Shown: positions 10,207 through 10,277 of the stretch, piece by piece
Layout: each line of letters starts with the position of its first letter
Numbering within the stretch: the stretch's first letter is position 1
Sequence record: PZ502562.2
From: a phage
Reading direction: 5' to 3' (one strand)
Length of the DNA stretch: 38,725 bases
The notes under the pieces: model-generated
Databases searched by the model: none
Seen by the model: only the letters and a program-made list of their open reading frames with translations
What the model was told of the DNA's origin: nothing
Program-made: the position numbers and the translations under genes

Positions 10207-10207
10207 T

Positions 10208-10230
10208 TAATTGAACTCACTAAAGGGAGA
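10208..10230 (+). promoter_or_regulatory. T7-RNAP promoter phi3.8-like
   Basis: TAATTGAACTCACTAAAGGGAGA, the divergent promoter found upstream of gene 3.8 in T7; here it is followed directly by gene 4. Confidence 0.75.
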
Positions 10231-10277
10231 CCACAACGGTTTCCCTTTGTTCGCATTGTTGATTAAGGAATAACCAT

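Follow-up and report, generated by a model that had tools for sequence, protein, structure and literature searches.

Empty endonuclease sites in a T7-like phage genome and in its close relatives

Endonuclease genes missing from a T7-like genome

Between genes 3.5 and 4 of the phage described here, a phi3.8-type promoter leads straight into gene 4, at a position where T7 carries an additional gene. The short gap raises the question of whether homing-endonuclease genes known from T7 have been lost from this genome or have never entered it. The window, by which we mean the whole stretch of DNA analysed (sequence record PZ502562.2, one strand, 38,725 nt), is a complete T7-like phage genome. In a base-level alignment of the whole genome, it is colinear with T7 (V01146) from end to end at about 91% nucleotide identity. 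More than 160 GenBank phages match its left 25 kb over at least 80% of the length, the best of them being Shigella phage ESh6, Escherichia phage CICC 80001, PHB20, and IME390 at about 92% identity, with T7 at 91%. Searches with 56 T7 proteins gave strong matches for nearly all of them; gp1 is 97% identical to T7 gp1 at the amino acid level, and the essential genes are 92-98% identical. The colinear T7 gene order, a single-subunit RNA polymerase, and T7-type promoters (seven exact promoter cores against zero expected by chance) place the window in Teseptimavirus.

Several other regions of the window differ from T7. Gene 1.4 is missing through a clean deletion at 7256-7257. Gene 1.2 (dGTPase inhibitor, 5845-6117) has about 36% amino acid identity to its T7 counterpart and still matches the Pfam gene 1.2 family. 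T7 gene 1.7 is replaced, at 7664-8230, by an unrelated open reading frame (ORF) of 188 amino acids, which matches the deoxynucleoside monophosphate kinase family phrog_139 (E 2.6e-37) and whose N-terminus gives a weak P-loop-type match; an ORF of equal length, 567 nt, lies at this position in Salmonella phage C2. The internal virion proteins gp15 and gp16 (26290-32552) are 79% and 68% identical to those of T7 at the amino acid level, against 94-99% for the surrounding structural genes, an excess divergence that suggests module exchange. The gene 17 tail fibre (32625-34466, 613 amino acids) has an N-terminal domain of the usual T7 type, and its residues 378-604 (especially 33756-34436) match Exo_endo_phos (PF03372, E 2.9e-12) over the full length of this Pfam family. 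The fold is that of an enzyme, not of a T7-type receptor-binding tip. The distal half of the fibre has a nucleotide match in none of 50,697 phage records and is 40-48% identical at the amino acid level to the fibres of the Citrobacter rodentium phages CR44b, CR8, and CrRp3; a sequence search of the enzymatic domain against solved structures gave zero matches. Between the tail fibre and holin genes, where T7 has nothing, lies an extra ORF of about 269 amino acids (34468-35277) with no Pfam match and a match to PHROG 22156 (function unknown, E 1.7e-87). Its product may be a second protein associated with the fibre, acquired together with the fibre module.

The absence of T7 genes 3.8, 5.3, and 7.7, on which an initial annotation of this DNA had remarked, is borne out by alignment, protein, and profile searches alike. 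The window contains nothing that corresponds to T7 segments 11213-11742, 16468-16834, and 19843-20240, and T7 does carry genes at these positions, as the initial annotation had stated: in V01146, gene 3.8 lies at 11225-11590, gene 5.3 at 16483-16839, and gene 7.7 at 19848-20240. A fourth gene, 2.8, which is the third HNH gene of T7, is also missing and had been overlooked. The window thus lacks four endonuclease-type inserts (2.8, 3.8, 5.3, and 7.7), not three. Searches with gp3.8, gp5.3, gp7.7, gp2.8, gp1.4, and gp1.7 of T7 returned chance-level matches only (tblastn, E<=10; E 0.26-3). Profiles built from 27 HNH proteins and three gp5.3-type proteins of related phages found nothing in the six frames of the window (best E 0.4-0.6), while the same profiles recovered the T7 genes used as positive controls at 1e-45 to 1e-77 (1e-45 to 1e-52 for the HNH profile). 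An HNH_3 (PF13392) ORF was found neither at the four sites nor anywhere else in the window (tblastn, E<=10; six-frame HNH profile, best E 0.6), and tblastn (E<=10) and six-frame profiles detected no remnants of endonuclease genes in the junctions. The window ORFs with no T7 counterpart contain no HNH domain and are not endonucleases. Furthermore, no Rfam family, group I introns included, reached the gathering threshold anywhere in the window, and gene 5 is a single uninterrupted ORF of 704 amino acids, 98% identical to T7 gene 5, with no intron RNA interrupting it.

The four T7 genes differ in family. Both gp3.8 and gp7.7 match the Pfam family HNH_3, at 3e-15 and 2.6e-13, respectively. The match of gp2.8 to HNH_3 scores 26.1 bits against a curated cutoff of 24.8; gp2.8 also matches PHROG HNH families at 1e-30 to 1e-12 and groups with 3.8 and 7.7 homologues when the ORFs of the relatives are clustered. 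In a 2025 preprint, 2.8, 3.8, and 7.7 were deleted as the three homing endonucleases of T7 (Mahata et al., doi 10.1101/2025.09.07.674715). For gp5.3, Pfam gives no HNH match and instead a match to PDDEXK_5 (PF11645; E 1.1e-10, 42.1 bits against a cutoff of 26.1), and its PHROG family, phrog_5018, is labelled "unknown function". The best solved-structure match, at a weak E of 0.013, is 2OST ("putative endonuclease"), which we take to be the PD-(D/E)XK homing endonuclease I-Ssp6803I. The initial annotation had counted 3.8, 5.3, and 7.7 as three HNH homologues; this is right for 3.8 and 7.7 and has to be revised for 5.3, whose profile matches assign it to the PD-(D/E)XK family and not to HNH. HNH genes do exist at the position between genes 5 and 5.5 in other phages (loci L013 and L059 of the panel described below; HNH_3, E 4.6e-19), and gp5.3 of phiYeO3-12 is annotated as a homing endonuclease (PMC4925675), which together are probably the source of the confusion. 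A common shorthand is corrected here: the HNH trio of T7 is 2.8, 3.8, and 7.7, and the fold of gp5.3 differs.

Anatomy of the empty sites and their occupancy in relatives

The four sites and the alleles beside them lie in the window as follows.

9293-9298, plus strand: empty 2.8 site; TAAGTG, in which the stop of gene 2.5 (TAA, 9293-9295) is followed at once by the GTG of gene 3 (9296)
9296-9751, plus strand: gene 3 (endonuclease I), empty-type allele; Phage_endo_I, E 6.7e-82
10207-10277, plus strand: empty 3.8 site; 71-nt gap between the gene 3.5 stop at 10206 and the gene 4 ATG at 10278
10278-10454, plus strand: gene 4 5' end (primase zinc-binding domain), empty-type allele, by alignment to T7 and relatives
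15191-15209, plus strand: empty 5.3 site; 19-nt gap TTCTATAGGAGAAATTATT between the gene 5 stop at 15190 and the gene 5.5 start at 15210
18206-18219, plus strand: empty 7.7 site; 14-nt gap GCAGGAGGTGACAC between the gene 7.3 stop at 18205 and the gene 8 start at 18220
18220-18489, plus strand: first 270 nt of gene 8 (portal), empty-type allele, by gapped alignment to T7 and relatives

The coordinates first given for three of these gaps (10207-10277, 15191-15209, and 18206-18219) are exact, with gene-to-gene distances of 71, 19, and 14 nt, and the ORFs across all junctions are intact. At the 2.8 site, T7 gene 2.8 starts at the GTG of a TAAGTGG context, and the same GTG starts gene 3 in the window. 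Within the 71-nt gap at the 3.8 site, the phi3.8-type promoter TAATTGAACTCACTAAAGGGAGA (10208-10230, core 10215-10230) is identical to the T7 phi3.8 promoter region and is followed directly by gene 4, as the initial annotation had described. The leader equals that of T7 up to 10258, and the following 19 nt hold the gene 4 ribosome-binding site. The first 177 nt or so of gene 4 have 60% nucleotide and 50% amino acid identity to T7, with the Cys4 motif (four zinc-binding cysteines) kept. Similarity resumes at 10455, the internal start of the gene 4 short form, and the remainder of the gene is 94% identical in nucleotides and 98% in amino acids. The 5.3 site is a clean indel: TTCTATAGGAGAAATTATT is nearly identical to the T7 sequence immediately upstream of gene 5.5, the window reads CACTGATTCTATAGGAG, and in T7, CACTGAT and CTATAGGAG are separated by about 366 additional bases, which include a ribosome-binding site of their own. 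At the 7.7 site, the window reads TAA-GCAGGAGGTGACAC-ATG, and T7 reads TAA-TCAGGAGGT followed by the GTG start of 7.7; there, the end of 7.7 and the start of gene 8 overlap as TAATG. The ribosome-binding site AGGAGGT belongs to gene 8 in the window and to gene 7.7 in T7. The flanks, which had been called intact, are so at 5.3 and at the immediate 7.7 junction; at 3.8, identity to T7 is lost from 10258 to 10455.

Occupancy of the sites was compared in a panel of 83 loci, two of which are T7 itself. The panel consists of 80 loci around DNA polymerase homologues with 10-kb flanks, drawn from a viral contig collection (IMG/VR), together with T7, ESh6, and C2. For each locus, the distance between the flanking genes was measured at the four sites, and ORFs in the gaps were classified. 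Within the closest clade, comprising 16 non-redundant genomes whose DNA polymerase is at least 94% identical to that of the window at the amino acid level, occupancy is as follows.

Genes 2.5 to 3 (2.8 site): empty in 15 of 16, with a gap of 0 nt as in the window; HNH gene in 1 (T7)
Genes 3.5 to 4 (3.8 site): empty in 10 of 16, with a gap of 71 nt (67 nt in one); HNH gene in 5; unclassified longer gap in 1
Genes 5 to 5.5 (5.3 site): empty in 11 of 16, with a gap of 19 nt; PD-(D/E)XK gene in 2; HNH gene in 1; other small ORF in 2
Genes 7.3 to 8 (7.7 site): empty in 11 of 16, with a gap of 14 nt (13 nt in one); HNH gene in 5

The all-empty pattern of the window (0/71/19/14 nt) recurs in seven of these 16 genomes, among them Salmonella phage C2, IME390, N30, CICC 80001, and 3A_8767, with one gap differing by 4-6 nt in two of the seven. 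Among the 83 loci, only T7 has a gene at every one of the four sites. In more distant clades, all 51 loci that could be assessed are empty between genes 7.3 and 8, as are 55 of 61 between genes 2.5 and 3. Full-length matches to 300-nt junction queries were found in 71 (genes 2.5 to 3), 54 (genes 3.5 to 4), and 54 (genes 7.3 to 8) GenBank phage records. The corresponding query for genes 5 to 5.5 matched 179 records, a count that includes occupied sites joined from two pieces, and many isolates match it at full length in a single piece. The empty junctions are base-for-base common to the window and many relatives and occur in independent isolates from several countries and hosts.

The empty form is the commonest arrangement among the close relatives of T7, and T7 is the unusual one. 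To present the missing genes as a conspicuous absence, as was done at first, is thus misleading, since, at each site taken by itself, most genomes of the closest clade are empty. The all-empty sites are a correct but ordinary comparative observation, as genomes with the same four junctions are already in GenBank. The content of homing endonucleases is known to vary between otherwise near-identical T7-like phages (PMC4925675), and with such patchiness already documented, the observation matters little as a discovery.

Many T3/Klebsiella-type relatives (e.g. panel loci L020, L028, L031, L037, L040, L044, and L049) have a gap of about 200 nt between genes 3.5 and 4. These gaps hold 40-amino-acid ORFs that cluster with the HNH family, possibly as the remains of decayed endonuclease genes or, alternatively, through an artefactual overlap with the gene 4 start.

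A small addition made here is that the tracts linked to endonuclease genes are delimited in genes 3, 4, and 8. Flanks were compared within the closest clade by gapped alignment, with the window as reference. The first 270 nt of gene 8 are 79-87% identical to the window in all five carriers of an HNH gene at the 7.7 site, against 90-99% in all ten empty genomes; beyond about 360 nt, the two groups are indistinguishable. Between the window and T7, this segment has 48 nucleotide differences and four amino acid changes (82% nucleotide identity), so that the differences in the 5' tract are mostly synonymous, and the rest of gene 8 is 95% identical in nucleotides. The 5' end of gene 4 is 44-63% identical to the window in four genomes with a T7-type or related 3.8, against 83-100% at empty sites. 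For gene 3, the first 270 nt are 96-100% identical in all 14 compared close relatives that lack 2.8, while gene 3 of T7, the only close relative with 2.8, is 63-74% identical (72% in nucleotides). The window carries the empty-type tract at all three HNH sites (genes 3, 4, and 8). At the 5.3 site, gapped alignments within the closest clade revealed no linked tract, so that nothing discriminates loss from non-invasion there.

The T7 alleles themselves follow the same division across the panel. By blastn, the T7 gene 4 5' allele occurs almost exclusively in genomes with an HNH gene between genes 3.5 and 4, and it reaches more distant HNH-bearing genomes at 78-83% identity. It was never found in the panel beside a short empty-type gap and has no blastn match in the window. 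For the T7 gene 8 5' allele, identity is 88-100% in panel genomes that carry 7.7 and 81-83% in empty ones. Control segments of T7, taken from gene 3.5 and from the middle of genes 4 and 8, show no such split, with 89-97% identity throughout. The association is counted over few independent alleles: about three for 7.7, two or three for 3.8, and one for 2.8. Tracts linked to HNH genes in this way are the signature that would be expected if the endonuclease genes carry their flanks along or are tied to cleavage-resistant targets. Homing is known to co-convert flanking markers (PMC3984707), and the mechanism has also been reviewed elsewhere (PMC10448857).

The T7 gene 3 allele (10257-10706 of panel locus L001) is 74-75% identical to every other panel locus, distant carriers of 2.8-type HNH genes included. 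A donor for it was not found among the 2.8-bearing distant panel loci, and the donor of the T7 segment with 2.8 and gene 3 is thus unsampled in the panel.

Uninvaded sites, replaced alleles, or deletion

We favour the reading that the window is a natural Teseptimavirus phage, about 91-92% identical to its nearest relatives, with the unoccupied form of the site at all four T7 endonuclease positions, and we assign this reading a probability of about 0.78. The four T7 genes are optional selfish inserts between essential genes, and in T7 they lie precisely where translation of the downstream gene would otherwise start (TAAGTG for 2.8, AGGAGGT for 7.7). The empty form would be ancestral at each site, and the divergent tracts may have entered together with the endonuclease genes, as co-conversion alleles or as alleles immune to cleavage. 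During mixed infection, the window phage would presumably be a cleavable recipient for the T7 endonuclease genes. What marks its sites as candidate homing targets is a comparative signature, the linked tracts set against the empty-type tract. We know of no cleavage-site data for T7 gp2.8, gp3.8, or gp7.7, and since no cleavage sites for these proteins were found in the literature searched, "immunity allele" is a term for what we infer from this signature.

Secondary loss by allele replacement is the alternative that survives best, although we consider it unlikely. Here, recombination with an endonuclease-free relative would have swapped out each gene together with its linked tract. The panel is visibly mosaic, which speaks for such exchange: gene 5.5 has two allele types unrelated to 5.3 occupancy, the 5' region of gene 4 shows two empty-type sub-alleles, and occupancy patterns are reshuffled among genomes whose polymerases are at least 97% identical. 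However, up to four independent events would be needed where non-invasion requires none, and empty is the majority state at each site. Furthermore, homing in mixed infections favours gain and not loss (PMC3984707).

Precise deletion, in which a T7-type genome would have lost nothing but the endonuclease ORFs and kept its flanks unchanged, is highly improbable. An 8-bp direct repeat, ACATTTAA, lies on both sides of T7 7.7 and could mediate such an event, and laboratory T7 lines without these genes are present in GenBank (MZ375xxx records). Against it speaks that genes 3, 4, and 8 of the window are of the empty type, not the T7 type, over their first 180-450 nt, because deletion of the ORFs alone would leave T7-type tracts in place. 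In addition, the laboratory T7 deletion records match the window junctions at 82-85%, compared with 93-98% for natural empty sites, and span 320-321 nt against a 300-nt query; the junction lengths of the window equal those of independent natural isolates. As a specific candidate, deletion between the ACATTTAA repeats at 7.7 was considered and rejected: it predicts TTTAATGGCT, and the window shows TTTAAGCAGGAGGTGACACATGGCT. The initial annotation had left the choice between a state never invaded and precise loss. Of the two, the former is better supported, and the empty-type tracts, as read from the alignments, argue for uninvaded alleles, or alleles replaced wholesale by recombination, over precise deletion.

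An assembly or engineering artefact, be it a collapsed assembly or a minimised laboratory construct, has nothing specific in its favour and is the least probable of all, given a divergence of about 9% from T7 throughout, a tail-fibre module of its own, a different gene at the 1.7 position, intact ORFs across the junctions, and the same junctions in independent isolates from several countries and hosts.

Consequences and comparison with known systems

If the uninvaded reading is true, the recognition sites of gp2.8, gp3.8, and gp7.7 would be narrowed to the first 130-450 nt or so of genes 3, 4, and 8. The spread of an endonuclease gene would also swap functional alleles of an essential replication protein, the primase, because the tract linked to 3.8 changes half of the residues of the zinc-binding domain. 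Taken jointly, that T7 is an exception, filled with homing-endonuclease genes, that the window is uninvaded at all four sites, and that the tracts narrow the recognition sites of the three HNH proteins is a tentative combination, to which we give slightly less than even odds.

The four endonuclease-type genes of T7 are dispensable. T7 without 2.8, 3.8, and 7.7 plates normally, and wild-type T7 outcompetes it on GAPS4 hosts (both Mahata et al., doi 10.1101/2025.09.07.674715). The window phage, which is without the three HNH genes, might accordingly be somewhat less fit than T7 on GAPS4-carrying hosts, and it could be used for testing the recent claim that the T7 endonucleases help against GAPS4. 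It is likewise well suited as a recipient in which to map where these endonucleases cut and how far their co-conversion tracts extend.

Among known genomes, Salmonella phage C2 (MN026740), IME390, N30, CICC 80001, and 3A_8767 are closest to the window in this respect, with the same gene order and the same gaps of 0, 71 (67 in IME390), 19, and 14 nt. They differ from it by about 8-9% of nucleotides over the left 25 kb and in the distal module of the tail fibre. T7 (V01146) shares colinearity and the conserved phi3.8-type promoter and leader with the window, but carries 2.8, 3.8, 5.3, 7.7, and 1.4 and has a divergent gene 3 (72% nucleotide identity), gene 4 5' end (60%), and gene 8 5' end (82%). 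The intronless homing of the T4 seg and mob genes offers a further parallel, as there, too, optional endonuclease ORFs lie between essential genes, are patchy among close relatives, and are accompanied by divergent tracts beside the ORF, as would arise from co-conversion or target immunity. In contrast to the T4 elements, the window represents the empty recipient state and not the element itself, and is known here through its sequence.
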